DNA of 64,000 nucleotides, from contig OZ250179.1 of the NCBI GenBank assembly GCA_965238125.1, positions 6,279,364-6,343,363 of the forward strand, given 5' to 3'. How positions within the stretch are numbered: the first letter of the stretch is position 1; every line of letters starts with the position of its first letter. Under the pieces are notes generated by a model, which worked only from the letters and a program-made list of their open reading frames with translations, made no database searches and was not told the DNA's origin. This stretch comes from Bryobacterales bacterium. Its GTDB lineage: Bacteria > Acidobacteriota > Terriglobia > Bryobacterales > UBA6623. Of this stretch, positions 5,360-63,579 are shown in pieces. The position numbers were made by a program, and so were the translations under genes.

Positions 5360-5510
5360 CTATCGGCGGGCGAACAAGTACTTCGCCACGAAAGCGAAGA
5401 TTGCCACGACGCCGGCCGTCGTGCTCGTAACCGTGGCAACGAGAACCGAATCCGGCAGAGTGAAGTACCCACGCGGTAGGAGGAATCCTTCGAAAGAGCA
5501 GGATCAGCAT
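5360..5510 (-). pseudogene. Frameshifted remnant of a small membrane protein
   Basis: Joining two frames gives MLILLF/EGFLLPRGYFTLPDSVLVATVTSTTAGVVAIFAFVAKYLFARR*, a hydrophobic helix pattern. Confidence 0.4.
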
Positions 5511-5535
5511 GATCGACGAATCCGCGGCTGCTGAT

Positions 5536-6690
5536 TCAGTCGCCCTCCCGCATCCGCCCCGCCGGGTCGAGGCGGTATCGCCGCCCCGCCCATTCGACGC
5601 GGTTGCCGAAAAAGCTCGCGCACCAAACCCCGAAAGCGAAAAGGTCGGCCGCGAAAATCCAGTAACCCCGCCGACCGACCGCTTCGGAGCCTACCGCCCC
5701 CCGACCGACCGACCAAGCCGCGACTCCCCGCAGTGCCAGACAAACCAGCGCTGCGGCCGCCGCCGGCGCTTGATCGCCGGCTAAGCCCAGCGCCGCCAAA
5801 CTCCAGACCGTCCCATGCGTGAAGAGCAGCCCGGCATGTCCCCAAGGCCGCGAAACACGCACCGTCCGCGACCACCGCAGCCAATGTCTCCCGACATCGC
5901 GCCACCCCTCGTTGGGCAGAACGGTTTCCACCACGCGCCGGGCCGGAACAACGCGCCGACCCTTAGCGGCCAAGCGGCTTCCCAATTGGTAGTCGTCGGC
6001 CAGGAACGGCCGCAGCGTCTCGAAGCCGCCGATCGCATCGAGATCGGCGCGGCGAACGGCCATCGTCGCGCCCAGCGCGAAGCGCATCCCTTGGAAACCG
6101 CGCGCCGCGAGTACTTGCCCTTGAAACTCAGCCGACACCCACAGAGCTTCGAGCAACGACGCAAAGCCCTGGGCGGGGCGGGCACGGTACAGGCAGCTCA
6201 CCAGACCGACCGCGGGGTCATCCAACTCGGCGACAATTTCCCGGAAGTAGCCGGGCTCGACGGCGATATCGGCGTCGTTGATCAGAAAAACGTTGTGGCG
6301 GGCGCGGCGCGCCAGCTCCTCGAGTCGCCACACCTTGGCGTTGCCGGCGGGCGCGGGTCCGCACACAGCGATCTCAATGCGAAGGTCGGAAAATTCGGCG
6401 GCCAAGCGAGAAACCACCGCAACGGCCGGGTCGTCGGGCGTCTCGACACCGAACAGCAGCTCGAACTCGGGATAATTCTGCGCGGCGTGAGCTCGGAGGT
6501 TTTCTTCCAACGACGGCCCGGCGCCTTGAAGAGGCTTGAGCACCGACAGCGCCGGAGTCGCTCCGCCGACACGCGGCCCGCCGCGCCGAAAGCGCCACGC
6601 AAACCATGTCATAGCCAAGTAATGGGCCGACGCGCAGACCGTCAGAGCGACGACAACGAACGACAGCGGACCGCTCACCAACTCCGTCAC
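5536..6690 (-). CDS. hpnI: Hopanoid glycosyltransferase (GT2, ceramide glucosyltransferase-like)
   Basis: LSVLKPLQG, NAKV, INDADI, FALGATMA, LADDYQLG, LRWSRTVR; in hopanoid cluster. Confidence 0.88.
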   Translation of the reverse strand: MTELVSGPLSFVVVALTVCASAHYLAMTWFAWRFRRGGPRVGGATPALSVLKPLQGAGPSLEENLRAHAAQNYPEFELLFGVETPDDPAVAVVSRLAAEFSDLRIEIAVCGPAPAGNAKVWRLEELARRARHNVFLINDADIAVEPGYFREIVAELDDPAVGLVSCLYRARPAQGFASLLEALWVSAEFQGQVLAARGFQGMRFALGATMAVRRADLDAIGGFETLRPFLADDYQLGSRLAAKGRRVVPARRVVETVLPNEGWRDVGRHWLRWSRTVRVSRPWGHAGLLFTHGTVWSLAALGLAGDQAPAAAAALVCLALRGVAAWSVGRGAVGSEAVGRRGYWIFAADLFAFGVWCASFFGNRVEWAGRRYRLDPAGRMREGD

Positions 6691-6697
6691 CCCGCGC

Positions 6698-7060
6698 CTA
6701 CGTGGAAACCAACATCACGCCGCAGGTTACCAGCAACGCGCCCGCCCAGCGACGCGGGGAGATCGTTTCCCCCAAGACCGTTTTCGCCAGCAAGGTCTCG
6801 ACCACGTAACCCGCCGCCGTCGCCGGTACGGCGAAGCTGACGTCGGCGATCGAAAGCAGCGCCATGAACGCAAAGAATGACAGGGTATAGCCGACCAGCG
6901 AAAGCCAGATCACCGCGGAGCCCCCGACGCGGCCCGCCTCCCGCGCTAACGACCGTGGACGAAAATCGTCGATCGGTCCCAAGCGCCGCATCCCGGTTGC
7001 TTTCAGAAGGTCGCCGGCGACCGTCCCCCCGACAACCAGCAGCAGCAAGAAGAACTTCAA
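6698..7060 (-). CDS. Small 4-TM EamA/DMT family transporter
   Basis: 120 aa, hydrophobic; ADVSFAVP...LGETISPRRWAGALLV. Confidence 0.85.
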   Translation of the reverse strand: MKFFLLLLVVGGTVAGDLLKATGMRRLGPIDDFRPRSLAREAGRVGGSAVIWLSLVGYTLSFFAFMALLSIADVSFAVPATAAGYVVETLLAKTVLGETISPRRWAGALLVTCGVMLVST

Positions 7061-7464
7061 GCCGCACCGCCTCGGGGTCGATCAGCGGTCGACACCGGCG
7101 TCGATCCGACCACGCCCACCCCGAAAGTAATCAGCACCGTCCCCGCCCAACGTCCGGCGGAAACGGTTTCTCCGAGTACCCACCACCCGAGCACCGCGAC
7201 CAGCACGTACCCGATCGAGGTGACCAGCAAGACATAGCTGAGGTCGGCCCGACTCAGCACCAAGGCGTGAGCGATGAAGAAAATCAGCAGTAGGACGACG
7301 CCCGCCATCACCCACGGATTGATGAACGCCCGCAGCCCCCCCTGAGCCATTGCCAACGGAGAGTAGGAGGCGATGTCGCCCACCTGCCGCATGCCGTAAC
7401 CGAGCACGATGTTGCCCGCAGCGTTCGTGACGATCACGATCAGCAGAAGGTAGGCGGTTTTCAT
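7057..7464 (-). CDS. Small 4-TM EamA/DMT family transporter
   Basis: 135 aa; ADLSYVL...LGETVSAGRWAGTVLI; 4-nt overlap with the next paralog. Confidence 0.85.
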   Translation of the reverse strand: MKTAYLLLIVIVTNAAGNIVLGYGMRQVGDIASYSPLAMAQGGLRAFINPWVMAGVVLLLIFFIAHALVLSRADLSYVLLVTSIGYVLVAVLGWWVLGETVSAGRWAGTVLITFGVGVVGSTPVSTADRPRGGAA

Positions 7465-7563
7465 GGCGACTCGCTCGAACCGCGGCTCCCGAGGGTACGG
7501 CTTCAGAGGGTCGCTATCGTACCGAGTCGCAACAAGCGGCCGGCCAACCTCACGCGCCGCGCC

Positions 7564-8382
7564 CTAAACCTCGTCCAAACAGGCAAGCCACCAGGGGTGC
7601 ATGCCGTTGTATTGCAACTTTTCGGGGATATGCTCGAAACGGTCGCAGGCCGCCGCGACTTCCTCTTTCGTGACGATCCCCTCTCGAATGGTCTCGAGCA
7701 AGGCGTCTTTCCAAACTCCCGTCAGAGGATGTTCCGGGTAGCGCCACGGCTGCGTGCGTTGCCGCGTGTAGTGCAGCAGACGCGTCTTGCCCGGTTCGTA
7801 TTCATTGAGGTGGTTCCAGTAGTGCGTGATCTCTTGAGGACGAAACTTGAGCAGATACCCCACCTGGGCCGCGCTATACCGCTTGCGCTCGTCCTCTTCC
7901 GGGCCCGCCTTGATGAAGGAGCGGATTTCTTCGACCGTGGGCCAGATCCCGCGAGCCTTTTCGCAATCGATCAACATCACGGAAGCCTCTGGGTACCCCT
8001 TGCGATACGTACACCACATACAGCTTTCGTGATTCGGATACTGGCCGTCGATTTCCCAGAGTTCGCGAATATCTCCGAAAACCATTTGGTCGGCGTCGAG
8101 ATAGATGGCCCAGCCCTTGTAGTCGCGGTACTCGGGGATGCGCCAGCGTTGAAACGAAAAGCCCGTCGCGGCGCCGAAGTCGCGAAGTTCCAGGCCGTCG
8201 GTTAGGTGATGAAATTCGATTTGCGTGGAATCCGCAGCGTGCTTGCGAATCGAATGCTCCAGAATTTTCCGAGGAATTTCGGCACACTCTTCGGTACCGA
8301 TGCAGACATGAATGGGCAATTCGACGACTCGCTTTGCCGCGCTCGCCGACTTTCGCCACTTTTCGATCAACGAGGAGAGCAC
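7564..8382 (-). CDS. Glycosyltransferase, GT8-like
   Basis: ATGFSFQRWRIPE, AIYLDADQMV (DxD), ASVMLIDC, WNHL, LLHYT..QPW. Start GTG 8382 chosen; the ORF track extends to 8682. Confidence 0.75.
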   Translation of the reverse strand: MLSSLIEKWRKSASAAKRVVELPIHVCIGTEECAEIPRKILEHSIRKHAADSTQIEFHHLTDGLELRDFGAATGFSFQRWRIPEYRDYKGWAIYLDADQMVFGDIRELWEIDGQYPNHESCMWCTYRKGYPEASVMLIDCEKARGIWPTVEEIRSFIKAGPEEDERKRYSAAQVGYLLKFRPQEITHYWNHLNEYEPGKTRLLHYTRQRTQPWRYPEHPLTGVWKDALLETIREGIVTKEEVAAACDRFEHIPEKLQYNGMHPWWLACLDEV

Positions 8383-8628
8383 GTTAGAATTGTACCGCGG
8401 AAAACCCAATAATTCAGCACGAACCAACACCGTCACGCCGTCGAACGCCGCACGGCCGGAAGGACGTGATTCGGCGGGCGCGGCCGGGTCGAACCGAGCC
8501 CGCCCGGATCCGCCGTCAAAGCAAGCTATTACCATTGTCCTACGACCTTTTCGGCTGTTGACGACGCGCCGGGGTGCAACCTTCGGACCCGCCCGAAACC
8601 GCATGTTATTCTGTTGTTCGTTGTTGTT

Positions 8629-9708
8629 ATGAATTCGTGCATTTACTCCGGGTTTCAATGGCTGACGCGCTCGGGAATTCAACGGTCATCCGGCGGTGCG
8701 TCACGCTTCTACCATACCGAGGCGAGCAAATACGCCACCGTTTCCACCGCCGCCACCAGCTACTTCGTCAGCGGCTTGCTGCAAAGCTCCGAAGTCGACC
8801 CGGACGCCGCGGTGGAGTGCGCCCAGGCCGCGGGCCGCTTCTTGCTGGACAAAGCCTTCGACGAGGAAGTCGGTCTGTTCCGCCACGAGGTGGTGGAAGA
8901 GGGGGACTTGCAGCCTTGGTCCTATCTCCTCGATTCGACCGCCGGCCTCCGCGCGCTGATCGACCTTGGGAAGGCGACCCAAGAACCCGCGTACGCCGAG
9001 CAAGCCGAGCGCTACGGGATTGCCATTAAGGAAAACCTTTCGCGGATGGACGGGTCTTTCTTTCCGGTCTTTGACCTGGCGCGGCAAATGCCCTACGAAG
9101 CCGACGAGCCATGGTGGCAACAGGCGGGCGTCTATCACCTCAAATCGGCGTTGGCGTTCCGGTTGCTCGCCGATGTCGTGGGCTTAAGCGAATTCAAGGC
9201 GATGGCGGAGGAACTCTTGCTGTGGTGCCTCAAACGGCATGAGGGCTTCGCCCAGCCCGAGCAGACCGCCGAGATGACGATGAGTCGCCTCCACGCCTAT
9301 TGTTATTTCCTCGAAGGGCTGCTTCCCGAGGCGGGTTTGGACCCCGCCTGCAGCCGGGCGCTGCAGTTCGGCATTCTCGAAATCGAAAACCTTTCCCAGG
9401 ACGTGGGTCACGAGTTTCAGCGCTGCGACGTGCTGGCGCAGCTGCTGCGGCTGCGTCTGTTCGCCGATCAGCTCGGGATCATGGAACTCGACTACCAACA
9501 GGCGGGCAACGAAGCGGCCGCAATTGAAGAGTTTCAGCGACAATCCTCGGACCCGAAAATCGACGGGGGCTTCGCCTTCGCGCGGAAGGACAGCCGACTG
9601 ACGCCGGACGGCAACACGACCGCTACCATCTTTTCCCTGCAAGCCCTGCAAATGTGGGAACAAGCCTCCTCAGGGGGGTTCCGCCGAAGCTGGGAAGCGC
9701 TGATCTAA
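8629..9708 (+). CDS. Hypothetical protein, possibly an alpha/alpha-barrel (epimerase/glycoside hydrolase-like)
   Basis: Long ORF with normal codon use; WLTRSGIQ..GG..RFY N-terminus and helical repeats. Fold is a guess. Confidence 0.6.
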   Translation: MNSCIYSGFQWLTRSGIQRSSGGASRFYHTEASKYATVSTAATSYFVSGLLQSSEVDPDAAVECAQAAGRFLLDKAFDEEVGLFRHEVVEEGDLQPWSYLLDSTAGLRALIDLGKATQEPAYAEQAERYGIAIKENLSRMDGSFFPVFDLARQMPYEADEPWWQQAGVYHLKSALAFRLLADVVGLSEFKAMAEELLLWCLKRHEGFAQPEQTAEMTMSRLHAYCYFLEGLLPEAGLDPACSRALQFGILEIENLSQDVGHEFQRCDVLAQLLRLRLFADQLGIMELDYQQAGNEAAAIEEFQRQSSDPKIDGGFAFARKDSRLTPDGNTTATIFSLQALQMWEQASSGGFRRSWEALI

Positions 9709-9770
9709 CCGCGATCGGTTTGGGAAGGGGACCCGCCGGGCCGGTTGGGCTTCCGCCGGACGCTTCTCGC

Positions 9771-10157
9771 CTACACCGCGCGCCGGTGGGTCGCCGTTAC
9801 CGTCGAGTGCAAACCGCCCCGCGGTGTGAACTCACCCACGATCTCCGCCTCGACCGGGTCGATCGTTCGCACGATGTCGGCCAACATGCGATTCACGACG
9901 TTCTCGTAGAAGATCCCCAAATCGCGATAGGCCAACACGTAGTACTTGAACGACTTCAATTCCAAGCAAAGCCGGTCCGGCTGATAGCTGAGCGTCAACT
10001 TGCCGAAATCAGGGAGGCCGGTCTTGGGGCAGACCGAGGTGAACTCGGGAATCTCGATCGTGATGCGATAGCCCTTGAATTGGTTCGGCCAGGTTTCGAT
10101 GGAAGGAAGCTCAGCGTCCAGACCGGCTTGGGCATGTTCCTCGGTGTATTCAGGCAC
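9771..10157 (-). CDS. queF: preQ1 synthase (NADPH-dependent 7-cyano-7-deazaguanine reductase)
   Basis: PEFTSVCPKTGLPDF, LELKSFKYY, FTPRGG. Confidence 0.95.
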   Translation of the reverse strand: MPEYTEEHAQAGLDAELPSIETWPNQFKGYRITIEIPEFTSVCPKTGLPDFGKLTLSYQPDRLCLELKSFKYYVLAYRDLGIFYENVVNRMLADIVRTIDPVEAEIVGEFTPRGGLHSTVTATHRRAV

Positions 10158-10172
10158 GGCGTTCGATTCTGA

Positions 10173-11312
10173 TTATGCGGGATTGAGGGCGCGCGGGTCG
10201 CGGCGCAGCAACACGTCGGCGATTCGTTGACAGGCGAGGCCGTCGCCGAAGGGGCTGTGGCGCCGGGCCATCCGCTCGTAATGCGCCGCGTCGTCGAGCA
10301 GGCGCGACGATTCACGGACAATCGTGGCGGGATCGGTGCCGGTGAGCACAGCCGTGCCGGCCTCGACGGCTTCGGGGCGTTCGGTGTTGTCGCGCAGCAC
10401 CAGCACGGGCTTGCCCAGCGTAGGGGCTTCCTCTTGGATACCGCCCGAATCCGTCAGGATGAAGCGAGCCCGCCCCATCAAATCGATCAACTCCACATAG
10501 CCGAGCGGGTCGACAAGGGTAATGCCGGGGCTCTCCGCGAGCAGCCGCCGGACCGGGTCGGCCAAGGCCGGGTTCGGGTGGACCGGGTAGACGAGCTGCA
10601 CGTCGTCGCGCGAAGCCAACTCAATCAGCGCTTTGCAGATTTGTTCCACTCCCGGGCCGAAGCTTTCGCGGCGGTGGGCCGTGACGAGAATCAATTGGCG
10701 CCCCGATTCGAGGAAGCTCCATTCGGGAACGGTCGCGCGGCCGCTTTCGATCGCTTCGCGGGCCCACAGCAGGGCGTCCACGCCTGTGTTGCCCGTCACG
10801 AAGATCGACTCCGGCGGTACACCTTCCGCGGCGAGACTGTCGGCGGCGCGCTCGGTGGGGGCGAAGTGTAAGTCCGCCAGGCAGCCGGTCAGGCGGCGGT
10901 TCATTTCCTCGGGGAAAGGGCTGCGCCGCCGGCCGGTACGCAGGCCGGCCTCGACGTGGCCGATCGGGATCGCCTGATAGAAAGCCGCCAACGCCGCGGC
11001 AAAGGCTGTCGTCGTGTCGCCTTGGACGAAGACTATGTCGGGGCGTTCCCCGGCGAGGACGTCCGTTATCCCGCTCAGCACCCGCGCCGTAAGTTGGGGC
11101 AGCGTCTGCTCGGGCTGCATAAGGTCCAAATCGTGGTCCGGCGTCAACTCGAACGTCGTCAACACCTGATGGAGCAAGTCGCGATGTTGCGCACTGACGC
11201 ACGTACGCACCTCGAACCGCTCCGGCTGTGCGGCGAGGCAGCGAACCAGGGGAGCAAGCTTGATCGCTTCGGGACGGGTTCCAAAGGCAATCAGGACACG
11301 CAGCGGCGGCAT
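10173..11312 (-). CDS. wecB: UDP-N-acetylglucosamine 2-epimerase (non-hydrolysing)
   Basis: FGTRPEAIK, VQGDTTT, HVEAGLRT, PFPEEMNR, HRRES, TDSGGIQEEAP. Confidence 0.96.
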   Translation of the reverse strand: MPPLRVLIAFGTRPEAIKLAPLVRCLAAQPERFEVRTCVSAQHRDLLHQVLTTFELTPDHDLDLMQPEQTLPQLTARVLSGITDVLAGERPDIVFVQGDTTTAFAAALAAFYQAIPIGHVEAGLRTGRRRSPFPEEMNRRLTGCLADLHFAPTERAADSLAAEGVPPESIFVTGNTGVDALLWAREAIESGRATVPEWSFLESGRQLILVTAHRRESFGPGVEQICKALIELASRDDVQLVYPVHPNPALADPVRRLLAESPGITLVDPLGYVELIDLMGRARFILTDSGGIQEEAPTLGKPVLVLRDNTERPEAVEAGTAVLTGTDPATIVRESSRLLDDAAHYERMARRHSPFGDGLACQRIADVLLRRDPRALNPA

Positions 11313-11313
11313 C

Positions 11314-12159
11314 TCAGTTCATCATCGCCTGCAGAGCCTGCAGGCCGGCGACGTACTTTTGCACTTCATCGATGTCGGAAGCTTCGGGAGAGAGTGCCAG
11401 GTACTGCTCGAAGTCACGGCGAGCCCGAGACAAGTCGCGAATCTGGTAATGCATGAGAGCCCGCTGTTTGTGCAGCTCGGCGTCTGTGGGATCAAGAGCG
11501 CTGAGCAGATAGAGAATCTGCGCCGCCTTACGATACTGCTCTCCGCTGGTGTAGATTCCCCGCAAGTTCCCCAACATGCGCTGGATGACGGCTCGCTCGG
11601 TGACGGCGCCGAAGTCGATGTCTTCCACCGCAACCGCTTTGCCCAACACCGACAACGCCCGCTCGACGCAGCTGGGGCGGTCGAGAATCTCACCGCCGTA
11701 AAACGAGTCGACAAAGAGAAGCGTATCGCCGTCGTCGTACTTCACCACGAAATGGCCCGGCAACCCGACGCCGAAGAATGGCAGGTTCAGCCGTCGCGCC
11801 ATGTCCAAGTAGACGACCGACAGAGTGATGGGAATGCCCATCCTGCGCTCGATTACATCATTGAGCAAGCTGTTGCGTGGGTCGTAATAGTCTTTCGTAT
11901 TGCCCTGGAAGCCCTCTTGATCGAACAAGAAGCGGTTGAGTGTTTGAATGACGTGGGGGGGTGAGCGGTCGGCCTCGAACTTTGGGGCGACGGTTTCGGC
12001 GAGGGCTTGCAACTTGTGCAAGCAAGCTTCGATATCGAGCGTTGGATATTCGAGCCTCGCCACCAGCAAGGCGGCTCTCGTCAAATCGGCCGCGAAGTCT
12101 TGCTTGGCGAACAGAGCCGCGAGGTCTTCGGCGACGAGGTTTGTGTTCGACATCGACAC
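11314..12159 (-). CDS. SirB1/transglutaminase-like protein with C-terminal TPR
   Basis: FQGNTKDYYDPRNSLLNDVIERRMGIPITLS, GVGLPGHF, RMLGNL. Confidence 0.88.
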   Translation of the reverse strand: MSMSNTNLVAEDLAALFAKQDFAADLTRAALLVARLEYPTLDIEACLHKLQALAETVAPKFEADRSPPHVIQTLNRFLFDQEGFQGNTKDYYDPRNSLLNDVIERRMGIPITLSVVYLDMARRLNLPFFGVGLPGHFVVKYDDGDTLLFVDSFYGGEILDRPSCVERALSVLGKAVAVEDIDFGAVTERAVIQRMLGNLRGIYTSGEQYRKAAQILYLLSALDPTDAELHKQRALMHYQIRDLSRARRDFEQYLALSPEASDIDEVQKYVAGLQALQAMMN

Positions 12160-12423
12160 AGTTTCCGGGACTACGGTTGCCGGGGTTTGGGATCGCTCCG
12201 CCGGTTCCGGCCCTAACTCGTGACCGACCGGTCAAACGTGTTCAGGGCCGCGTAAGTTTCAGATTAACATGCAGTTTAGGCAATCCCCAACGAGATATTC
12301 ACCCTAAACCGGCCATCATTTTTGTCTTGCCGCGGCCCCGCCGGCGCCTCTACACGGGCGCTCATTTGCCAACGCCTCCATGGGGATGGGAGAATTGCTT
12401 TCTTCCCATCGAGGAGTCCAGCC

Positions 12424-13968
12424 ATGAAGCGTGCCTTGCTCAGCGTTACCGACAAGACCGGCCTTGTCGACTTCGCCCAAAAACTCGCCGCGCATCAGAT
12501 CGAACTGATCTCGACCGGAGGGACCGCCCGGCTGTTGCGCCAGGCCGGCCTCGCCGTGCGGGATGTCACCGAGTTGACCGGCTTCCCGGAGATGCTCGAC
12601 GGGCGGGTCAAGACGCTGCACCCGAAAGTGGCGGGCGGTATCTTGGCGATTCGCTCGAACTCCGATCATATGGGCGCGCTCGAGCAACACGGCATCAGCT
12701 CGATCGATATGGTTGTCGTCAACCTCTACGCGTTCGAGAAGACGGCCGCGCGCGAGGGTGTCAGGTTCGACGAGATCATCGAGAACATCGACATCGGCGG
12801 GCCGACGATGATTCGCGCGGCGGCCAAGAACTTCAGCGACGTCGCGATCGTCACCGACCCGGAAGACTACGAACGTATTGGAACCGAACTCGACGCCGGC
12901 GGGGGTGCCTTGCCGGCCGAGACGCATTGGTATTTGGCGCAAAGGGCCTTTGCCCTCACGGCGGCCTACGATCGGGCCATCAGCTCGAAGCTCGAGAGCA
13001 TTGATCCTTCGGGTGCCCCGGAACCGGAACCCGCCGACGCTTTGCCGGCGATCCTCGACGTCCGAATCGCGAAGACGGCCCAGCTGCGCTACGGCGAGAA
13101 CCCGCACCAAAGCGCCGCGCTCTACGCCTCGGGCCAAGGTGGAATCGCTGCGGCCAGGAAGCTTCACGGCAAGGAGCTGTCCTTCAACAACCTGGTGGAT
13201 CTCGACGCGGCTTGGCAGCTCATTCAGGAGTTCGAAGACCCGGCGGCAGCCGTGATCAAGCACACCAACCCCTGCGGTTGCGCCGAGCAGACATCGGCCG
13301 CAGAAGCGTTTCGCAAAGCGCTCGAATGTGACCCGATCTCGGCCTTCGGCTCGGTGTTGGCCTTCAACCGCGAGCTCGACGCCGAGGCGGCCGAGGAAGT
13401 CTCAAAGCTGTTCGTCGAGGCGATTGCCGCGCCGGGGTATGCCCCGGAAGCTCTAGCCATTCTCACCAAGAAGAAGAACCTACGGCTGCTCGAAGTCGGC
13501 GCCGAGCCCGCCGGCCCGGCGATCAAAAGCATCTCGGGCGGCTTCCTGGCGCAGTCCCAAGACGGGCTTTCGTGGATCGGGGACCAGTTGCAAATCGTCA
13601 CCGAACGCCCGCCGACCGACGATGAGATGAAGGCGCTCGCTTTTGGCTGGAAGATCGTCAAGCACGTCAAGTCGAACGCCATCGTCTATGTGCGCGGCGG
13701 CCAGACGGTCGGCGTCGGAGCGGGCCAGATGAGCCGCGTGGACGCTGCCCGCATCGGGGCGTCGAAGGCCGTCCTGCCGCTCGAGGGGACCGTGGTCGGC
13801 TCCGACGCCTTCTTCCCTTTCGCCGACGGCGTCGAGGAGATCGCCAAGCACGGCGTCACCGCGATCGTGCAGCCCGGCGGATCGAAGCGCGATCAAGAAG
13901 TGATCGACGCCGTCAATCGGCTCGGGCTGGCGATGGTCTTCACCGGTATCCGCCACTTCCGGCACTGA
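12424..13968 (+). CDS. purH: Bifunctional AICAR transformylase/IMP cyclohydrolase
   Basis: MKRALLSVTDKTG, GRVKTLHP, IDIGGPTM, LRYGENPHQ, KHVKSNAI, SDAFFPF, GIRHFRH. Confidence 0.98.
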   Translation: MKRALLSVTDKTGLVDFAQKLAAHQIELISTGGTARLLRQAGLAVRDVTELTGFPEMLDGRVKTLHPKVAGGILAIRSNSDHMGALEQHGISSIDMVVVNLYAFEKTAAREGVRFDEIIENIDIGGPTMIRAAAKNFSDVAIVTDPEDYERIGTELDAGGGALPAETHWYLAQRAFALTAAYDRAISSKLESIDPSGAPEPEPADALPAILDVRIAKTAQLRYGENPHQSAALYASGQGGIAAARKLHGKELSFNNLVDLDAAWQLIQEFEDPAAAVIKHTNPCGCAEQTSAAEAFRKALECDPISAFGSVLAFNRELDAEAAEEVSKLFVEAIAAPGYAPEALAILTKKKNLRLLEVGAEPAGPAIKSISGGFLAQSQDGLSWIGDQLQIVTERPPTDDEMKALAFGWKIVKHVKSNAIVYVRGGQTVGVGAGQMSRVDAARIGASKAVLPLEGTVVGSDAFFPFADGVEEIAKHGVTAIVQPGGSKRDQEVIDAVNRLGLAMVFTGIRHFRH

Positions 13969-53546: not shown

Positions 53547-54586
53547 TTACACGGGGTCGGCGTATTCGAATCCCATGGCCTCGAAATCGAGGACTTGGGA
53601 AACCGTAACCGCCGGATCGGCACTGAAGTCCGGCAGCCGATTGACGATGGCCGCGGATACCGATACCGTTCGATAGCCTGCGGCGTTTCCAACCCAAGGC
53701 CACATCACATCATTCAGGCGGTGCCCGAGAGGAGTCTGGCGCAGCGTAAACGGCGAAAGTTCGTTCGGAGCAGGCCAATGCTGGTCGTGCGTCGAGCCCG
53801 CTACATCCGCGATCCGCTTCTGCTGCCAATGCGCCAGATGCGGTCGACGTTGGCGTGGTGGAGCCAAAAGATCGGGTCATTGGGGGAGAAAGCTCCTCCC
53901 ATATGGCCCCGATAAATCTATGCGCCGGAATTGTGGGTGCGGGTGGTAATGGCGGAGATGGCCCGCTTCCAATACCAGCCAGAATGCCCATAGCCCGTTG
54001 GCGCCGCGCACCGGTATGTCCATCTCAGCCAAGAAATCGATGCTGGTGGTGGCGGGCGGCTCAGCTCATTTCCGTGCTTCCCCGCGACAAGGCCGTTCCG
54101 TTGCCTTCCGCGAGCAGCGAATGTACGGGGAAGCCTTGCGCGCCCGCCGGCCACCACGCCGGGCGCTCCCCGGCCGGCACCTGCCGACGAAGGACGCCGT
54201 TGGAAACGGCAGTCGGCGCGCCCCAACTGGTCGTAACTCAAGAAGTCCGGCGTAAACAATCTTGTGGCGGCCGAGACATCATCACTCCAGCGCCAGTAGG
54301 GCAATGTTACCCCGGCGACTTCCTGCTGCAGGGCCAACTCAAGGACGCGCAGGTACTGACGGTGCCAAGGCAGAAAGCCGACGTTGCCATGGGCGAAATT
54401 GATCGGGTCGGCCACGCCCGGGCTCAACACCGCCATCACCGCGCCATGCAGAGCGACGAACTGGTCGTAAACGCTGGTACCGGCGGGGGCGCCGGGAGCT
54501 TGTCGCGCTTTGAGCTTGATGAACGCTTCCACCACCGCCTGCTGTTCGTCGTCGGACAGGTCAACCGCATTTTTCCTGACATCCAT
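53547..54586 (-). pseudogene. Tyrosinase (type-3 copper), frameshifted
   Basis: VRKNAVDLS, YDQFVALH, AHGNVGFLPWHRQYL, LPYWRW; later frames give HN, SPNDPIFWLHHANVDRIW and GHRLNDVMWPW..GFEY. Confidence 0.85.
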
Positions 54587-56288: not shown

Positions 56289-56631
56289 CTACATGAGGTC
56301 CTCGGGCAGCCTTGCATCCTTGCCTCGCCGAGCTTGGTTGATCTGCCCTTGAGTGAGACCTTCCGACCCTCTGAGGTCCGCCTCGCTCAGGTCTGCCTGG
56401 AGGAGGTCCGCCAGGAAGAGATTCGCCCCGGAGAGGTCTGCTCCGCGGAGGTTCGCTCGGTAGAGGTACGCCCGGCGAAGGTTCGTCCCGCTCAGGTTGG
56501 CCAGGCCCAGATTCGCTTCACGGAGGTCCGCCTGCGCGAGATCCGGACGTATTTCCGGATTCTCCTCCCTTCCACCGATTCCAGACCTCGACACCTTGTT
56601 TGAGGACGCTAAGATGTTTCGGATTCGCCAT
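56289..56631 (-). pseudogene. Pentapeptide-repeat protein, frameshifted
   Basis: [20 protein letters not shown] then a +1 shift into [11 protein letters not shown] and A(D/N)Lxx repeats. Confidence 0.8.
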
Positions 56632-56742: not shown

Positions 56743-57421
56743 TTAATGGCCATTGGCTTCTCGATCGAGCCAGTTCGCCGGTATTTCAAGCCCTTCCGGC
56801 AACTTCGTATCCCCGTCTCCTTGTGCTGTGTTGATGCTCTCCTGGGTCAGACCGTCCGCGGTGCGGAGGTCCGCCCCGCTGACATCTGTCATGAGCAGCT
56901 TTGTCCCTCCCAGGTTCGCCCCCGTGAGGTTCGCTCGGACGAGCAGAGCCGCTCGGAGGTCCGCCGTGCCGAGGTTCGCCTCGATGAGGACCGCCCCGCT
57001 AAGGTCGGCCTCAAGGAGGTTTGCCTTGCTGAGGTTGGCCCTCGTAATGTCTGCGCCGGTGAGCCTGGCCGCACGGAGATCCGCCGCTCGGAGATCCGCC
57101 CCCTCGAAGTCCGCCCCGGTGAGAGCCGCGCCAATAAAGTCGGCATCGATGAGGTTCGCCTCCCTGAAGTCGGTCCCGATGAGGTCTGCTCCGCTCAGAT
57201 TCATCTCACGGAGGTTCGCCCCGCGAAGGTTCGCCCCACTAAGGTCTGCTCCGAAAAGAACCGCCACAGAGGTTCGCATCACCGAAGTTCGCCTCGCGAA
57301 GCTCGATCCCGCGGAGTTCGGCATCGGAGAGGTCCGGCTGTGTTTCCGGATTGTCCTCTCTCCACCGATTCCAGGCCTCGACACCCTGCTTACACACGTC
57401 GAGATGTTTTGGGTTTGCCAT
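56743..57421 (-). pseudogene. Pentapeptide-repeat protein, frameshifted
   Basis: MANPKHLDVCKQGVEAWNRWREDNPETQPDL..., shift near 57265, long A(D/N)Lxx run, ends GLTQESINTAQGDGDTKLPEGL..PANW. Confidence 0.85.
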
Positions 57422-57750
57422 GGAGTCAAGGTGCTCTCAGAGTCAAGTCTAGATGTTCACGACAGTGAACGTCGGTCTGATCATTGTGCCTCAGCCGGAG
57501 CAGGAGTTGCCGAGAGGCAAGGTCGGAGTCCTCTCGGCGGACGGGCCGCCGGCGTCCGGAATGCCTTGACCGGACCCGATCTGAAGGCCGGACCGGCGAA
57601 GAAAGGAGGATCGAACGTGAAAGCAGTGCGAAGAGTGCGAAGAACGTTGCAGCGCAAACCGTGGCTCGGCCATGCTATCCTTAGCCGGGATTGCCAAGGC
57701 GGAAACGCTCGTTCAGTGACGCTGGGGAAATGATCTCGCCGGGAACAAAC

Positions 57751-58563
57751 GTGAACTCAATATTGAAACCTGACCGCATACGAACCGCATTGCTGCTCGC
57801 AGCCGGAACCGGCAGTCGACTTTCTCCGTTAACGGACACCGCCCACAAGTGCCTGACTGAAGTCAACGGCGTGCCCATCCTCAGGCAACAAATAGCCTGT
57901 CTGGAGCAGTGGGGGTTTGAGGATCTGATCGTTGTCGTCGGCCACCAAGGCGATCAGATTCGAGAGTTCTTGGGCAGCTTCGAGTTGGATCTGAAAGTCA
58001 GCTACATCCACAACCCACGGTATCGAACGACGAACAACCTCTACTCGCTGTGGTTGGCTCGGAAGGCAATCGAGCGGTCGTTTCTCCTGCTGGAGTGTGA
58101 CCTTTTCTTCGAGGCCGGTCTGCTGTCAGGGATGCTGCACCCGGACAAGATCGCTCTCGCGATCCGACGGCCGTGGATGCGCGGTACTACGGTCACGCTG
58201 GACGACTCGCAACGGGTCGTTGGGTTTCAGCTGGGAGGCAGCGCCACGGGAGATCCCCTCACCTACAAGACCGTGAACATCCACAGCCTCTCTCTGTCCA
58301 CCTGGCGCCGCATGAGGAGACGTCTCGATGCGTACGTTTCGTCGGGCAGGGTGAACGACTACTACGAGGCGGTTTTCCGCGACATGACCGTCGACGGAGT
58401 ATTCAACGCGCGGGCTGTATCCTTTGACGACGGGAGCTGGTACGAAGTCGATACGCTGGAGGATCTAAGTTCCGCCGAGAGGTTGTTCGCGAACTCGCGT
58501 ATCGCGAAGCGAAAAATACGAAAATCGCGGGCGACCCCCGCGACTTCACGAGACGCGGCGTAG
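57751..58563 (+). CDS. LicC/PntC-like phosphocholine (phosphobase) cytidylyltransferase
   Basis: ALLLAAGTGSRLSPLT..HKCL, NPRYRTTNNLYSLWLA, LLECDL, YYEAVF, WYEVDTLEDL. Confidence 0.88.
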   Translation: MNSILKPDRIRTALLLAAGTGSRLSPLTDTAHKCLTEVNGVPILRQQIACLEQWGFEDLIVVVGHQGDQIREFLGSFELDLKVSYIHNPRYRTTNNLYSLWLARKAIERSFLLLECDLFFEAGLLSGMLHPDKIALAIRRPWMRGTTVTLDDSQRVVGFQLGGSATGDPLTYKTVNIHSLSLSTWRRMRRRLDAYVSSGRVNDYYEAVFRDMTVDGVFNARAVSFDDGSWYEVDTLEDLSSAERLFANSRIAKRKIRKSRATPATSRDAA

Positions 58564-58632
58564 CGGTGAACAACGGTGCGCCGCCGGTGCGGCAACTTCG
58601 GCCGGGCTCTCGATCAGCGTCTGAGGGCCGGC

Positions 58633-59442
58633 ATGGCTGAGCTGGACTACGCAACCGTCCAGCGATACTGGAACGCCGCTCAGCCCTCGATCCTCGCGCC
58701 TTACATGATGGACGGATTTGGCTTCCCCGCGGGGGCGGGGCGGTTTCGATTCCGGGCGGAATCGAAAATTGTCCAACGCCTCATCGCCGGCGCCAACACC
58801 AACGGAACCGTGTTGGACCTCGGCAGCGGCATCGGCTACTGGGCCGAGTTCTTCTCTCGCCGGTTCGCCGGCGTTGTCGCCATCGAGGCTGGCTTGTCGC
58901 TGTTTGAGGATCTGAAGCGGCGGTGCGCTCCCTACGCCAATGTCAAGACTCTCCACGGCAGGGTGTCCGAGTTTGAGCCGGAAGGCGTCTATTCCTTGAT
59001 GTTCTTCGGCGGCATGCTGATGTACCTCAAGACCGAAGACGTGATTTCGCTTCTCCGGAAGCTCATCCCCTTCCTCGAGGCCGGCGGCATGATCCTGTGC
59101 CGGGAGACGACCGCGCGTGAGGGAACCGTCACGCGCCAGGGAGAGTATCAGGCAGTGTACCGCTCCGTCGCGTCGTACTCGCGGATCTTCGAGGAATGTG
59201 GACTCACTGTTTCGACCGTCGAGTTGAACGTGCCCTATGCACTGCTTCAGATCGGCTGTGAGTCCGTTCGCAAGTGGCGGGAGATGATGCCGAAGCCCTT
59301 GCGGTTGACCCCCATCGTCGGTCGTCTCGCATACTGGGCCCTACGCTTGAGCGACCCGTTGGCTGTTCGGGCGCCCCAGGCGCTGGGGCTGCCGATCCCG
59401 CGCCTAACGAATCACTTCTTCGTACTGCGAGCAGCGGGCTGA
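58633..59442 (+). CDS. Class I SAM methyltransferase resembling the phosphoethanolamine N-methyltransferase MT1 domain
   Basis: VLDLGSGIG motif I; VQRYW, YMMD, MLMYL..EDV..LL, GGMILCRET, YRS...YSRIFEEC. Confidence 0.82.
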   Translation: MAELDYATVQRYWNAAQPSILAPYMMDGFGFPAGAGRFRFRAESKIVQRLIAGANTNGTVLDLGSGIGYWAEFFSRRFAGVVAIEAGLSLFEDLKRRCAPYANVKTLHGRVSEFEPEGVYSLMFFGGMLMYLKTEDVISLLRKLIPFLEAGGMILCRETTAREGTVTRQGEYQAVYRSVASYSRIFEECGLTVSTVELNVPYALLQIGCESVRKWREMMPKPLRLTPIVGRLAYWALRLSDPLAVRAPQALGLPIPRLTNHFFVLRAAG

Positions 59443-59492
59443 TCTAGTCCGCCGAGGCCGGCACGATCGCGCTTCTTGATGAAGGAAAAGAT

Positions 59493-60161
59493 TTGATCGT
59501 AAGAAACTTGGCGAACCTCATCTCACTCCTGGGCGTGCTGCCTGTCTGTGTGCTCTTTCTCGACGACGGCTATCGATACATCGTGCCGCTCATCGTTTTC
59601 AACAACATCATGGATGACCTAGACGGCATCGTCGCGGTCAAGCTCAACATCAAGAGCGTATTTGGCGCGGCTCTGGACAACGTCTGTGATGCCGTGGCGC
59701 ACGCGACATTCGTGTTGATGGTCGGCATGCACTACGGCTGGATCTGCGGCGTCCCGGGCCTGGCCGCGGTGACGGCGATGCTGATCCGCGTCGTCTCACG
59801 AATCGTCCCCGGAGCAACCGTGGGAGTCGGCTCACCAACCAATGAGCTGATTCGCCACATGTTCTTCGTCTTGCTTCTGGCGAGAGTCTTCGATTTCGAT
59901 GTCGCGATCGTCCTCGCGGCCGTCTTCACACTGCATACCGTGTCCATGCTCCTGCCCTACCGCATGCCGGGGCTCATCAGGAGTGTCACGAAGTCGGCTT
60001 TCTCCATCGGCCTGGTCAATGTGGCTCTGGTTGCTGCGTGGCTGGCGCCTTACGCCGCCCCCGTCGTCGCGGCGGCGTTTGGCTCCACGTACTTGTACGG
60101 GTTCGTGTTTGGAGGCCTCAAATGGTTCAAGGCGACGCCAACATCCACGGAGCCGGCCTAG
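59493..60161 (+). CDS. CDP-alcohol phosphatidyltransferase family membrane protein
   Basis: LANLIS; DDLDGIVAVKLNIKSVFGAALDNVCD (DxxDGxxA..GxxxDxxxD); multiple TM helices. Confidence 0.88.
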   Translation: MIVRNLANLISLLGVLPVCVLFLDDGYRYIVPLIVFNNIMDDLDGIVAVKLNIKSVFGAALDNVCDAVAHATFVLMVGMHYGWICGVPGLAAVTAMLIRVVSRIVPGATVGVGSPTNELIRHMFFVLLLARVFDFDVAIVLAAVFTLHTVSMLLPYRMPGLIRSVTKSAFSIGLVNVALVAAWLAPYAAPVVAAAFGSTYLYGFVFGGLKWFKATPTSTEPA

Positions 60162-60380
60162 CGTGGCCTAGCGTGCTGAGCGCACGGGTATTCGCTCCGT
60201 GCTCTTGGTTCCTACTCCTGATTTGAGAAGGAACTCGTGGGCGTGTCTTCTACAGGTCATGTTGGGTAAGACGTACGGAAACACAAAGCGTTACTTTGTT
60301 TCAGAGAGAATACGCCCTCCCCGATCAAATCAGCCTCCCAAGCACCCTTCTTGCACCGGAAAGTAACTAGAGCGACATCG

Positions 60381-62260
60381 TCAGCGACCGCCCCCGGCTC
60401 TTAATCGCTGATAGGTCTGCCGCGCCTCGCGATCCGGATAGTCGATCCGGCTTAGGTAGAGTTCGAGCGTCCGCTCCGCGCGTTGACGCAGCCCCATCTT
60501 CGCAAACAGTAATCCCAAGGCCCGGGCACAGTTCGGCAACCTTGGGTAATGCTCGATATACGTCGCGCAGGCCTTCTCGAGATGATCGCCCAGACGTGAC
60601 TTGGGGATCTGGTGGCGAGAGATCAGCTCTTCGTTCTCGGGAATGTCGTGGGCGAACACCAGTGTTTGGCCGTCTTCAAACACCAGCCGCCAGGAAGCAT
60701 TCGAATCGCTGCCTAGAGTGAGAACCAGAGGATAGATGACCCCTCGGACGTATTCGAAAGCGTTCATGACGACGATCTCGGCGCCGTAGTCGGCCGGCAA
60801 ACGATCGAGTTCGGCGCGTTCCTCGGGGTTGCGGCCGCGGTTATAGAGAATCTTGCGGTAGTCGCGATAGACCGATTCGTTCAAGGCGCGGCCGTCGATG
60901 AAGGTCCTCTGTTCGGGCCATAGCGACCACAACAGATAGCCCCCGAATTCATATGAGTTGAACATCCGCTGCTCGACTTCGTTCTCTTGGAGAAAGCGCG
61001 CGGCGGTCACGGGGAACTTCCACTCCGCCGCGCGAAGTTGAAACACCCGCCCCGCGGTCGATTGTTGGATGAAGACCGCGACGACGACGACCATTCCGGC
61101 CACGGCGACATAGCGCGACGTCCGCGCGGGCAACCGCGGCGAGCCGATGCGAGCCAAGGTCGCCGTGACGAGGGGGCCGCCGTAGGCGGCAACCAGGACC
61201 GGACCAAGAAACGCGATCAGCGGGGTGTTGCGAAACGCGGTCAGCGAGGCCGCCGCGAAAGCCGTGAACAAGAGGGCGTCGGTGAGCCGCGCTACGCGCC
61301 AAGAAAGCAGCAACACCGCGGCTGCACCGTAGAGCAAGACATTGTAGGTGTAGGGCGGCCCCCACAAGAACGGGGGTCTCCACTCGATCAGAGTACTTGT
61401 GAGAAAACTTGCTCGATAGGCGGGGAGCACTTCGAGGATTCGGAACCCGTTGGGGTTGAGACCGGCGACGAGAAAGACGGCGGCGGCGACATAAAGCAAC
61501 GTCTTGCGGCGTTCGCTTGAAAGACCGCGGGAGCCAGCTACATAGGCCCCCACCGTCACCCACCCTAGAAAGAAACCACCATGGGAGTTGGCCCACAGCA
61601 GCTCGAGCGGCGCCAGCAGCCACACCAGCCGATCCGCTCGGCCGCCGCGGTGGCGCTCCAAGATCACCACGAAGATGGCCACGAAAAGGAACGACAGCAG
61701 TGCCGGGCGACCGGCCGAAAACATGGTCAAGACCGGCGCGGCCGCCAAAGCCGCCGCGATTCCGGCCAAGAAGCTTCCGGAGCGCCGGGCCGCCAAATAC
61801 CCGGCCGCCGCGCAGACCAGGCCCAGCAGGCAAGCCTTCCACAACACCAGAGCCGGGAACCCGCCGGCGAGATAGATCAGGTACCAAGCAACCTGGGCAA
61901 GCCATTCGTGGGTCAGGTTGAAGCGACGCACCTTCTCCTCGCCCGGATAAGAGGGGTCGCCCAACTCCGAGGTGTAAGAGAACGGGTCGGGAACCGGGAG
62001 ACGCCCTTGCTCGAGAATGTAGCGGCCCGTGGCCAGATGCCACCATGAGTCGGTGTCGGCGACCTCGGTCGCGAAGACTCCGAGCAACAACAGGGTGACC
62101 GCGGCGAGCAGCCCGAAGCGGATCGGGAGTGGGATGTCGGACAGCGGTGTAGGAGCGGCAACGGGCTCGGCGGCGGCAGGCTTGGTCGCCTCGGCCGATG
62201 GGGCTTCGGGGTTCGGACGGGCGCGAGTTTTCTTCCTGCGGGACAGAGTAACCAGGCTAA
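60381..62260 (-). CDS. Polytopic membrane protein, putative GT-C-fold glycosyltransferase with TPR-like tail (start uncertain)
   Basis: DTDSWWHLATGRYI..PDPFSYT, HEWL, LWANSHGGF, LIEWRPP, MFNSYEFGGYLLW, FIDGR. Confidence 0.75.
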
Positions 62261-62472
62261 CCGTTCCTCGGCGGGCGAGCAAGCCGGCAACCGAGACGAT
62301 CGGGCGCGAGCGGGGCTTACCTTCTCGGGCCTCTTGCCCGCTGATTACGTAGCGCGCGTGCAGCCTGTGCGCCGGGTGTGGCGATGAACGCCCGTCATCT
62401 CGCGTAGAATTATTAGCGCTGTCCCCGCTGCGCGCGGCCGCAGGGCGAGGTGCCGGAAAGGTCGGGTCATAC

Positions 62473-63579
62473 ATGAAAATTGACCGCATTACGCTACGTG
62501 AAATCCGCATGCCGCTGGTCCATTTCTTTGAGACCAGCTTTGGGAGAACGACCGAACGCCGCATCATCATCGTCGAAGTCGAGGGCGAGGGCGCCGTGGG
62601 GTGGGGCGAGGTGACCGCCGGCGAGCGTCCCTTTTATAACGAGGAATGGACCGATGCCGCTTGGCTGGTGTTGCGGGATTTCGTCGCGCCGCGAGTCATT
62701 GATAGGCCGCTCACGTCGGCCGCCGAAGCCGCCGCCCTCAGCAGCCACATTCGCGGCCACCAGATGGCGCGCGGTGGATTGGAGGCCGCGGTATGGGATC
62801 TCGAAGCCTGCTTGGCCGGCGTGCCCCTTTGGAAGCACATCGGCGGCAGCCGGACCGAGATCGCCTGCGGGGTTTCGATCGGTATTCAAGATTCGGTCGA
62901 ACAATTGCTCGGGTTGATCGGGCGCGAAACAGCCGCCGGGTATCAGCGCATCAAGATCAAGATCAAGCCGGGTTGGGACGTTGACGTCGTGGGGCGGGTT
63001 CGGGAGCGTTTCCCCGACATTCGGCTGATGGCCGACGCCAACTCCGCCTACACGCTCGACGACGTCGAGCACCTCAAGCAGCTCGACGCCTTCGACTTGA
63101 TGATGATCGAGCAACCTCTTGCTCACGACGAGATCATCGATCACGCCGCGCTCCAAGCCGCGCTCGCCACGCCGATCTGCCTCGACGAGTGCATTCGTAA
63201 TGCTCACCACGCTCGCCAGGCGATTACGCTGGACGCGGCCCGCATCATCAACATCAAGCTCGGCCGTGTGGGCGGCTTCAGCGAGGCCCTGCGCGTTCAC
63301 GAAGTTTGCCGCGAGCACGGCATCCCGGTCTGGTGCGGCGGGATGCTCGAAGGGGGCGTCGGCCGGGCCCACAACATTGCGCTTTCGACGCTCGAAGGCT
63401 TCAGCTTGCCCGGCGATGTTTCGGCGTCGAAACGTTATTGGAAACGCGACGTGATCGATCCCGCGGTCGAAGTGAGTGGGCGAGGAACGATCGAAGTGCC
63501 CGAGACGCCGGGGCTCGGCTATGACGTGGACCGGGATTACGTAGCGTCCCTGACGGTCCGCGAAGAAGTCGTGAAGTAG
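62473..63579 (+). CDS. menC: o-succinylbenzoate synthase / N-succinylamino-acid racemase (enolase superfamily)
   Basis: FETSFG, RIKIKIKPG, LMADANSAY, MIEQPL, ICLDE, INIKLGRVGG, WCGGMLE, PGDVSAS. Confidence 0.92.
   Translation: MKIDRITLREIRMPLVHFFETSFGRTTERRIIIVEVEGEGAVGWGEVTAGERPFYNEEWTDAAWLVLRDFVAPRVIDRPLTSAAEAAALSSHIRGHQMARGGLEAAVWDLEACLAGVPLWKHIGGSRTEIACGVSIGIQDSVEQLLGLIGRETAAGYQRIKIKIKPGWDVDVVGRVRERFPDIRLMADANSAYTLDDVEHLKQLDAFDLMMIEQPLAHDEIIDHAALQAALATPICLDECIRNAHHARQAITLDAARIINIKLGRVGGFSEALRVHEVCREHGIPVWCGGMLEGGVGRAHNIALSTLEGFSLPGDVSASKRYWKRDVIDPAVEVSGRGTIEVPETPGLGYDVDRDYVASLTVREEVVK

Follow-up and report, generated by a model that had tools for sequence, protein, structure and literature searches.

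Near the end of a 64,000-nucleotide stretch of a Bryobacterales genome (the window, by which we mean the whole stretch that was analyzed), three genes follow one another on the forward strand. They encode a LicC/PntC-type nucleotidyltransferase (NT), an S-adenosylmethionine (SAM)-dependent methyltransferase (MT), and a small CDP-alcohol phosphotransferase (CPT). An earlier note on this DNA had proposed that the three enzymes methylate phosphoethanolamine, or else 2-aminoethylphosphonate (AEP), activate it with CTP and transfer it to a lipid, as in plants and nematodes. By computational analysis, we find that the three genes are strictly linked across genomes, that MT resembles the first methyltransferase domain (MT1) of phosphoethanolamine methyltransferase (PEAMT), and that a sister system includes a decarboxylase-like enzyme. 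On balance, we consider it probable that this mobile operon builds an N-methylated, ethanolamine-phosphate-type lipid head group by a CDP-alcohol route.

57691..58563, + strand: NT, LicC/PntC-type nucleotidyl(cytidylyl)transferase; longest open reading frame (ORF) of 290 aa; called from Pfam and LicC/PntC homology
58633..59442, + strand: MT, single-domain class I SAM-dependent methyltransferase with well-supported N-methyltransferase identity, 269 aa; called from homologue starts, Pfam and a profile match
59493..60161, + strand: CPT, small polytopic CDP-alcohol phosphotransferase with a PssA-like fold, 222 aa; called from Pfam, motif and AlphaFold2 (AF2) fold
60182..60202, + strand: terminator-like hairpin, 7-pair stem with 5 GC pairs; pattern match only, from a consensus scan

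The ORF calls leave gaps of 69 nt (58564-58632) and 50 nt (59443-59492) between the genes, in agreement with the spacing of about 50-70 nt given in the earlier note. The likely start of NT is ATG 57730 or GTG 57751, both inside its longest ORF; the latter is the one used in the earlier note. The MT frame is open from GTG 58576 (58576-59442), and homologues begin with MAELDY, which corresponds to ATG 58633, again the start used in the earlier note. Ribosome-binding-like sequences stand 5 nt before this ATG (GAGGG) and 6 nt before the CPT start, TTG 59493 (AAGGA). The hairpin, located just after the CPT stop codon, is the probable end of the operon. No sigma-70-like promoter was found in a consensus scan of 57000-60600, and an Rfam scan of the window returned no family and hence no riboswitch. 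Contigs from metatranscriptomic libraries of four studies match the stretch at 90-99% identity and therefore derive from relatives rather than from this strain. The NT/MT junction is bridged by a single contig (X1, 58343-58728) and the MT/CPT junction likewise by single contigs (X1, 59309-60133; X2, 59240-60100), a weak hint at joint expression given that DNA carry-over is possible and that contigs cannot prove a single transcript. Gaps in the cover by X7 and X8 contigs carry no meaning.

Linkage and spread of the cassette

A scan of species-representative genomes returned 120 relatives in 169 candidate stretches, and gene order was examined by local tblastn with the window's proteins at the best 80 of the 120 loci. 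NT, MT, and CPT stand in the same order and on the same strand at 75 of these 80 loci, and at the other five MT lies no more than 172 bases from a contig end. When ORFs in the flanks of the 80 loci were clustered, the three cassette clusters were present in 72, 69, and 69 loci and no conserved fourth gene emerged: the next cluster, exemplified by an antisense ORF inside the cassette, covers 11 loci, and each of the remaining clusters covers at most 5. Conservation of the triad, proposed in the earlier note as a check, is thus well documented.

Related to MT at E<=0.001 are 676 protein clusters. By record label, cassette carriers include Planctomycetota, Nitrospirota, Nitrospinota, Gamma-, Alpha-, and Deltaproteobacteria, SAR324, Acidobacteriota, Verrucomicrobiota, Spirochaetaceae, Sumerlaeia, and one 'uncultured archaeon'; many are, by record name, metagenome-assembled genomes (MAGs) from marine, deep-sea, hydrothermal, sediment, or oxygen-poor-water samples, and some of the labels may be binning errors. 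The nearest records, at 91-97% identity, are labeled as Bryobacterales MAGs. In a sample of 401 genomes from the window's own phylum, the close family occurs in five (G000, which is the window's own genome, G207, G280, G290, and G381) and the sister family described below in three (G065, G381, and G401); the cassette family was found in none of three genomes of the same order. The strict triad, its unconserved flanks and its patchy spread make a self-contained, horizontally mobile operon the best reading of the three genes.

Two genomes of this sample hold further copies. G280 has one full triad (L086) and, in addition, L112 (G280:C3) and L113 (G280:C6), which contain NT and an MT matching residues 1-207 only and at which tblastn detects no CPT; these may be duplicated, decaying copies. 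A 490-aa frame at G381:C49 was considered as an MT fusion and rejected, as it is an upstream-extended frame overlapping NT at an otherwise ordinary second triad.

The three proteins and related systems

All NCBIfam matches to NT, MT, and CPT are below threshold, so none of the three can be equated with a named enzyme through a curated equivalog model. For MT, a single-sequence phmmer search of PDB sequences gave Arabidopsis PMT1 (5wp4, 1.3e-12) and PMT2 (5wp5, 8.8e-12) as the best relatives, followed by nematode PMT-1 (6wlf, 3.5e-7; 4krg) and then by KsgA and NTMT1. A profile of 39 MT family members (A1), searched against the same sequences, matched the MT1 domains with E-values of 6.5e-27 (5wp5), 7.6e-26 (5wp4), and 5.8e-17 (nematode 6wlf), compared with 1.9e-12 for KsgA, the best match outside the PMT group, and 4.4e-9 for NTMT1. 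The profile scored 69 bits on the MT1 domain vs 26 bits on the MT2 domain. An hhalign comparison of A1 with P0221, a true di-domain PEAMT homologue (1.6e-141 to 5wp5), gave a probability of 99.05 and an E-value of 2e-18 over query residues 7-201 (~190 residues), a span that takes in the N-terminal V..YW/MM segment and, away from the SAM motifs, the RE[ST] and YR[SE] segments. Judged by these comparisons, the likeness of MT to PEAMT MT1 is real and far beyond chance. No phospholipid N-methyltransferase is named among the 46 PDB chains listed for MT at E<=1.

The earlier note had listed a series of short matches to the N-terminal domain of plant PEAMT. The phmmer alignment contains VLDLGSGIG/VLELGAGIG, MLMYL..EDV/LLMYLSDKEV, GGMILCRET/GGYIFFRES, and YRS..YSRIFEEC/YRE..YSKVFQEC; the N-terminal matches (V..YW and MM) lie beyond it, but are aligned by hhalign to P0221. 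MT belongs to the class I SAM methyltransferase fold: its motif I (VLDLGxGxG) aligns with that of 5wp4, and its AF2 model (predicted local distance difference test score, pLDDT, 92; predicted template modeling score, pTM, 0.89) has a Rossmann-type sheet. Pfam assigns it to Methyltransf_PK (2.9e-10, the best match), and also to Methyltransf_23, Methyltransf_25, and Methyltransf_11. Both PEAMT MT1 and the NTMT1 group methylate a primary amine, so that the identity of MT as an N-methyltransferase is well supported by its relatives. MT1-type enzymes are known for the first methylation only. With 269 aa in a single domain, MT lacks the di-domain architecture of plant and nematode PEAMT; the search found no longer or fused relatives of the window's MT, which is weak evidence. 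Members of the wider bacterial MT superfamily, the distant ones at 33-35% identity, keep R39, E43, Y131, R157, E158, Y172, Y176, R177, N199, and Y202. A complex prediction of MT with CPT scored 0.00, which counts neither for nor against binding.

NT matches Pfam NTP_transf_3 (1.9e-11) and NTP_transferase (1.7e-8). Its best solved relatives, LicC (1jyk, 3.3e-17) and a PntC fusion (6pd1, 7.1e-11), are activators of phospho- or phosphono-amino-alcohols, and the alignment to 1jyk (residues 25-268) indicates a LicC-like fold over the full length. The signature of LicC/PntC-type enzymes, given as GXG(T/S)RX4-8PK in PMC6697681, is present as G-T-G-S-R-L-S-P-L-T-D-T-A-H-K, in which H replaces the family-consensus P before the invariant K. 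E135 and E226 of NT align with D105 and D192 of LicC and are invariant in 65 family members. According to the same source, the equivalent Glu104 and Glu196 of the AEP-specific Tde-PntC contact the primary amine (Rice et al., PMC6697681), and phosphocholine may be accommodated in LicC by the smaller size of Asp, selectivity being mainly steric. The Glu/Glu pair of NT thus argues for a small-amine substrate, namely, phosphoethanolamine or, perhaps, the monomethyl derivative. Phosphocholine, being fully methylated, is hence not an obvious substrate of NT, and methylation may follow transfer.

CPT matches Pfam CDP-OH_P_transf (1.2e-6; 29.4 bits vs a cut-off of 22). The motif of CDP-alcohol phosphotransferases (PF01066) is D(x)2DG(x)2AR(x)8G(x)3D(x)3D. 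In CPT it reads D41xxD44GxxA48-V-K...G58xxxD62xxxD66, and the four Asp and two Gly residues are invariant across the family. The AF2 model (pLDDT 91.8) is all-helical. Its best fold match is the phosphatidylserine synthase (PSS) of M. jannaschii (7b1k/7pow; template modeling score over the query, TMq, 0.69; E 1.9e-4); the 222-aa protein is unlike human CEPT1 and Xenopus CHPT1 (8ero, 8gyw; TMq 0.25-0.29). The Atlas clusters nearest to CPT are auto-named as the CDP-diacylglycerol--serine O-phosphatidyltransferase (PssA) family. The model thus suggests that CPT is a head-group synthase of bacterial or archaeal type; the linkage to NT, not the fold, is our ground for inferring the donor.

Relatives of MT occur in further gene arrangements. 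We constructed a quick maximum-likelihood tree (76 rows; supports from the Shimodaira-Hasegawa approximate likelihood ratio test, SH-aLRT, without bootstraps; representative-search hits outside 245-320 aa were omitted, except three domain slices). It joins the clade of the window's MT with a sister clade (97 SH-aLRT, 29 rows), and a third MT clade adjoins these two (92). Each of three sister loci that we examined encodes an MT homologue (MT'), a LicC-type NT', a PssA-like CDP-OH transferase (CPT'), and a pyridoxal phosphate (PLP) enzyme of the Aminotran_1_2 family:

L114 (G401:C160), 4822-8546: MT', NT', separate PLP enzyme (5877-6989, 370 aa), CDP-OH transferase
L115 (G065:C29), 9344-12899: PLP enzyme fused to the C terminus of NT' (637 aa)
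L116 (G381:C8), 8840-12195: PLP enzyme fused to the C terminus of NT' (620 aa)

Among solved structures, the sister PLP enzyme comes closest to 6oux, 'Threonine phosphate decarboxylase-like enzyme' (4.2e-36), with CobD (1lc5) behind it; PMC7755780 uses this name for SMUL_1544 of Sulfurospirillum. Its best NCBIfam model is CobD TIGR01140 (1e-50 to 3e-53, below the curated cut-off), ahead of HisC. The sister NT' proteins share 36-48% identity with the NT of the window and keep E135, D137, Y225, and E226 invariant. CPT' reaches 68-94 bits with the models for PssA and archaetidylserine synthase, short of the cut-offs. SMUL_1544 reportedly decarboxylates serine phosphate to ethanolamine phosphate. 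With 6oux as the closest solved structure, the sister PLP enzyme would be expected to convert phosphoserine to phosphoethanolamine, and a CobD-like enzyme in this position points to phosphoethanolamine as the natural substrate class. By its gene content, the sister system reads as a Kennedy-like route from phosphoserine to phosphoethanolamine, followed by CDP activation, transfer, and N-methylation.

In the third clade, MT is fused behind a CDP-OH transferase in P0226 (5 of the 23 clusters listed), and in L125 it has an NT and two CDP-OH transferases as neighbors. Other members of this clade (P0284, P0292, and L123 116-2125) carry MT fused behind a PhosphMutase + Metalloenzyme (archaeal-type phosphoglycerate-mutase-like) domain.

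A candidate CDP-alcohol route and its alternatives

In the route that we favor, NT would react a phospho-amino-alcohol, most likely phosphoethanolamine or an N-methyl form, with CTP to give a CDP-alcohol. CPT, a membrane transferase of the PssA fold, would then pass the phospho-alcohol to a lipid hydroxyl, diacylglycerol being the default guess, and MT would N-methylate the amine with SAM. The substrate, lipid acceptor, and product of the cassette are named here as we infer them. The combination of phosphobase methylation and a CDP route put forward in the earlier note gains from the MT1 likeness, the conserved triad, and the CobD-like enzyme of the sister system, and loses from the supply side, as no source of phosphoethanolamine was found in the genome.

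Several observations weigh against this route, the supply of substrate foremost. The window's genome is a single contig of 6.92 Mb that is 94.8% complete by marker genes. It contains no match at E<=0.001 to the choline/ethanolamine kinase family PF01633, nothing at 1e-25 in a search with the L114 PLP protein, and no CobD-like enzyme, the best TIGR01140 match being HisC in a hisD-hisC-hisB operon. The one group II PLP decarboxylase that it encodes is similar to those for aromatic amino acids (7xin, 4.1e-122). Kinase, CobD-like, and group II decarboxylase searches of this genome thus gave no phosphoethanolamine source. Among 51 genomes, namely, the 50 other cassette genomes and the window's own, homologues of the L114 PLP enzyme were found at E<=1e-25 in 11 (nine of them at E<=1e-45), and the kinase passes its cut-off in 3 of the 50 others. 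Psd adjoins a PssA-like CDP-OH transferase gene in the window's genome, which is the ordinary route to phosphatidylethanolamine (PE). A single PmtA can already methylate PE, so that the advantage of three genes is not evident.

Further points of this kind come from the proteins themselves. The top PDB matches in a Foldseek search with the MT model are NTMT1/NRMT alpha-N-methyltransferases (E 8e-15, TMq 0.65-0.69), with AtPMT2 at rank 42 only, and the best Pfam family of MT is Methyltransf_PK. The tree puts PEAMT MT1 apart from the bacterial clades, on a long branch joined to an NTMT-like row and with an unsure position; MT does not group with eukaryotic PEAMT MT1 to the exclusion of other methyltransferases. 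NT has Glu at both positions at which phosphocholine-specific LicC has Asp (105 and 192). The nearest fold to CPT is that of a CDP-diacylglycerol-dependent serine transferase, and the canonical Arg of its motif is replaced throughout the family by A/V followed by a conserved Lys. Finally, the carriers are nearly all uncultured MAGs.

As to the input of the cassette, the absence of a kinase or pepM gene from the window, which had been remarked upon before, extends to the entire 6.92-Mb genome (PF01633; phosphoenolpyruvate (PEP) mutase, TIGR02320). PEP mutase passes the cut-off in 9 of the 50 other cassette genomes. Together with the 3 of 50 for the kinase, this indicates that neither AEP nor a kinase-made phosphobase is the general input. 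The lack of an L114 PLP homologue in the window's genome implies that the three-gene form works without the sister PLP enzyme. For phospholipase C (PF04185), the genome gave only a 26.5-bit partial match, and PlcP-type enzymes were not searched. The aromatic amino acid decarboxylase-like gene (L127, G000:C1:4768673-4772776) is located between dnaJ and an IS110-family transposase gene.

The position of the methylation step within the route can be assigned only tentatively. Methylation of the free phosphobase before activation, the order used by plants and nematodes, is possible but doubtful. The only characterized relatives of MT act on free phosphobases, which weighs against methylation as the last step. 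We are more doubtful still about methylation after activation or after transfer, although the NT-decarboxylase and transferase-MT fusions would join consecutive steps if the order were decarboxylase, NT, transferase, and MT. Given the small-amine pocket of NT and the first-methylation role of MT1, a mono- or dimethyl-PE-like product appears at least as likely as phosphatidylcholine (PC).

A different use of the same enzymes would be a closed cycle of head-group editing on the cell's own PE, with PE and SAM as the only inputs and no need of a kinase or decarboxylase. CPT would run backwards, from PE and CMP to CDP-ethanolamine and diacylglycerol, and NT, reversed with pyrophosphate, would free phosphoethanolamine. 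The PEAMT-like MT would methylate phosphoethanolamine in an irreversible step, after which NT and CPT would run forwards and place the methylated head group back on the lipid. Such a cycle would explain why three genes suffice and why they travel between phyla; we nevertheless regard it as unlikely.

The phosphonate version of the proposal, in which NT activates AEP that is made or scavenged, MT N-methylates it and CPT makes an N-methylated phosphonolipid, draws on the similarity of NT to PntC: the PntC fusion is its second-best solved relative, and its Glu/Glu pair occupies the amine-contacting positions as in AEP-specific Tde-PntC. At one locus (L033/G023:C1:78798-79607, an alphaproteobacterial MAG), a 570-aa PEP mutase frame lies ~4.5 kb from the cassette. 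This is the only such case among the nine pepM-positive genomes, however, and no PEP mutase was found in the window's single-contig genome; the PLP enzyme of the sister system, moreover, is a CobD-like class I/II enzyme and not an AEP transaminase. The AEP option of the earlier note is thus improbable.

It is similarly improbable that CPT works in the manner of PssA or Pcs, with CDP-diacylglycerol as donor and a free amino alcohol as acceptor, while NT and MT serve another step or product. This reading would account for the fold of CPT, much closer to PSS than to CEPT1 and CHPT1, for the auto-naming of the nearest Atlas clusters and for the scores of CPT' on PssA and archaetidylserine synthase models. 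The fold is common to all family members, however, and alone leaves the donor unfixed. In addition, it would not be explained why a LicC-type NT is linked to the transferase at 75 of 80 loci, and again in two other subfamilies, and the genome already has a PssA-like gene beside Psd.

We also give little credence to a product other than a membrane lipid, be it a soluble phosphodiester solute or a glycan or another envelope acceptor decorated with a phospho-amino-alcohol. The precedent is IPCT-DIPPS, in which an NT and a CDP-OH transferase work on soluble substrates to give di-inositol phosphate. The match of NT to the NCBIfam model of IPCT-DIPPS (8.7e-15) is far short of the cut-off, 4mnd is among the fold matches of CPT, and the record names of many carriers indicate deep-sea, hydrothermal, or oxygen-poor-water MAGs. 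Against such a product, the flanks of the cassette show no conserved genes for glycans or solutes, the nearest relatives of CPT are lipid head-group synthases, and nothing specific speaks for it. Finally, a role of MT outside head-group chemistry, for example as a protein alpha-N-methyltransferase whose linkage reflects regulation or modification of the neighboring enzymes, would fit the Foldseek ranking and the Methyltransf_PK match, but is highly improbable given that the profile prefers phosphobase MT1 over NTMT1 (6.5e-27 vs 4.4e-9) and that, in three separate clades, genes of the MT superfamily are found linked or fused to those for an NT and a CDP-OH transferase.

Comparison with known systems and neighboring genes

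The CDP-alcohol route proposed here employs the same three enzyme classes in the same logic as the PEAMT/PMT route of plants, nematodes, and Plasmodium, and the cassette MT aligns with MT1 over ~190 residues. By contrast, this MT has one domain and belongs to a bacterial clade separate from PEAMT, NT goes with LicC/PntC rather than with the eukaryotic CCT type, CPT has the PssA fold and not that of CHPT1/CEPT1, and the cassette is without a kinase. The label 'plant/nematode-like' is hence apt for the logic of the route and not for descent, in which the PssA fold of CPT also differs from the CPT/EPT type. The cassette looks assembled from bacterial parts, and its likeness to the plant/nematode route is best taken as an analogy, that is, as a bacterial assembly rather than a member of that route.

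Among bacteria, PMC6805115 lists four experimentally confirmed routes to PC: Pmt, Pcs, the CDP-choline pathway of Treponema, and glycerophosphocholine acylation; none of these four pairs a PEAMT-like methyltransferase with a CDP-alcohol step. In the confirmed pathway of Treponema denticola, which consists of LicCA and a 1,2-diacylglycerol cholinephosphotransferase (PMC6805115), a LicC-type enzyme makes a CDP-amino-alcohol and a small bacterial transferase puts it on diacylglycerol, as predicted for the cassette. That pathway scavenges choline by means of the LicA kinase and has no methyltransferase, whereas the cassette has the reverse, a methyltransferase and no kinase; the cassette NT carries Glu/Glu in place of the Asp/Asp of LicC. 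PmtA and Pcs share with the cassette the likely class of end product, N-methylated PE or PC, but the cassette route would pass through a CDP-alcohol, and Pcs requires free choline and no NT.

PntC of the Pnt pathway makes CMP-2-aminoethylphosphonate, according to PMC6697681. It is homologous to NT (6pd1, 7.1e-11) and has the same Glu pair in contact with the primary amine, and the fusion of NT to a substrate-making PLP enzyme in the Pnt pathway is mirrored in the sister system. The two differ in that most cassette genomes, including the window's, gave no PEP mutase and in that the fused PLP domain of the sister system is CobD-like. The CobD-like decarboxylase SMUL_1544 (6oux), a relative of this sister PLP enzyme, has no counterpart in the window's cassette, and none was found in its genome. 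Our literature search returned no description of the cassette or of a bacterial phosphobase methyltransferase cassette, with coverage that was incomplete and did not extend to supplements.

If the prediction holds, the cassette would represent a Kennedy-like way for bacteria to make amino-phospholipids through a CDP-alcohol, with phosphoserine as the feed in the sister system. Environmental lipidomics could then use it as a gene marker for N-methylated PE-type lipids, and it could serve as a three-gene module for head-group engineering. The MT family is large, and its carriers are mostly uncultured marine, deep-sea, and sediment bacteria from many phyla, by label. N-methyl- and N,N-dimethyl-PE lipids have been seen in marine sediments, as stated in PMC5572230; were the closed editing cycle true, these genes could be their source.

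Among the other genes of the window, two ORFs for pentapeptide-repeat proteins lie on the reverse strand just upstream of the cassette (56289-56594 and 56743-57429, the latter with a Pfam Pentapeptide match of 3.6e-37), and long antisense ORFs overlap both. Further upstream, the ORF at 53918-54586 (-) contains the segment ..FLPWHRQYL.., which may resemble a tyrosinase-type copper site. Downstream, a 729-aa polytopic membrane protein with no Pfam or NCBIfam match (60381-62570, -) converges on the cassette and is not kept beside it at other loci. It is followed at 62473-63579 (+) by a gene for an enolase-superfamily protein, which matches MR_MLE_C (6.1e-49) as well as MR_MLE_N.

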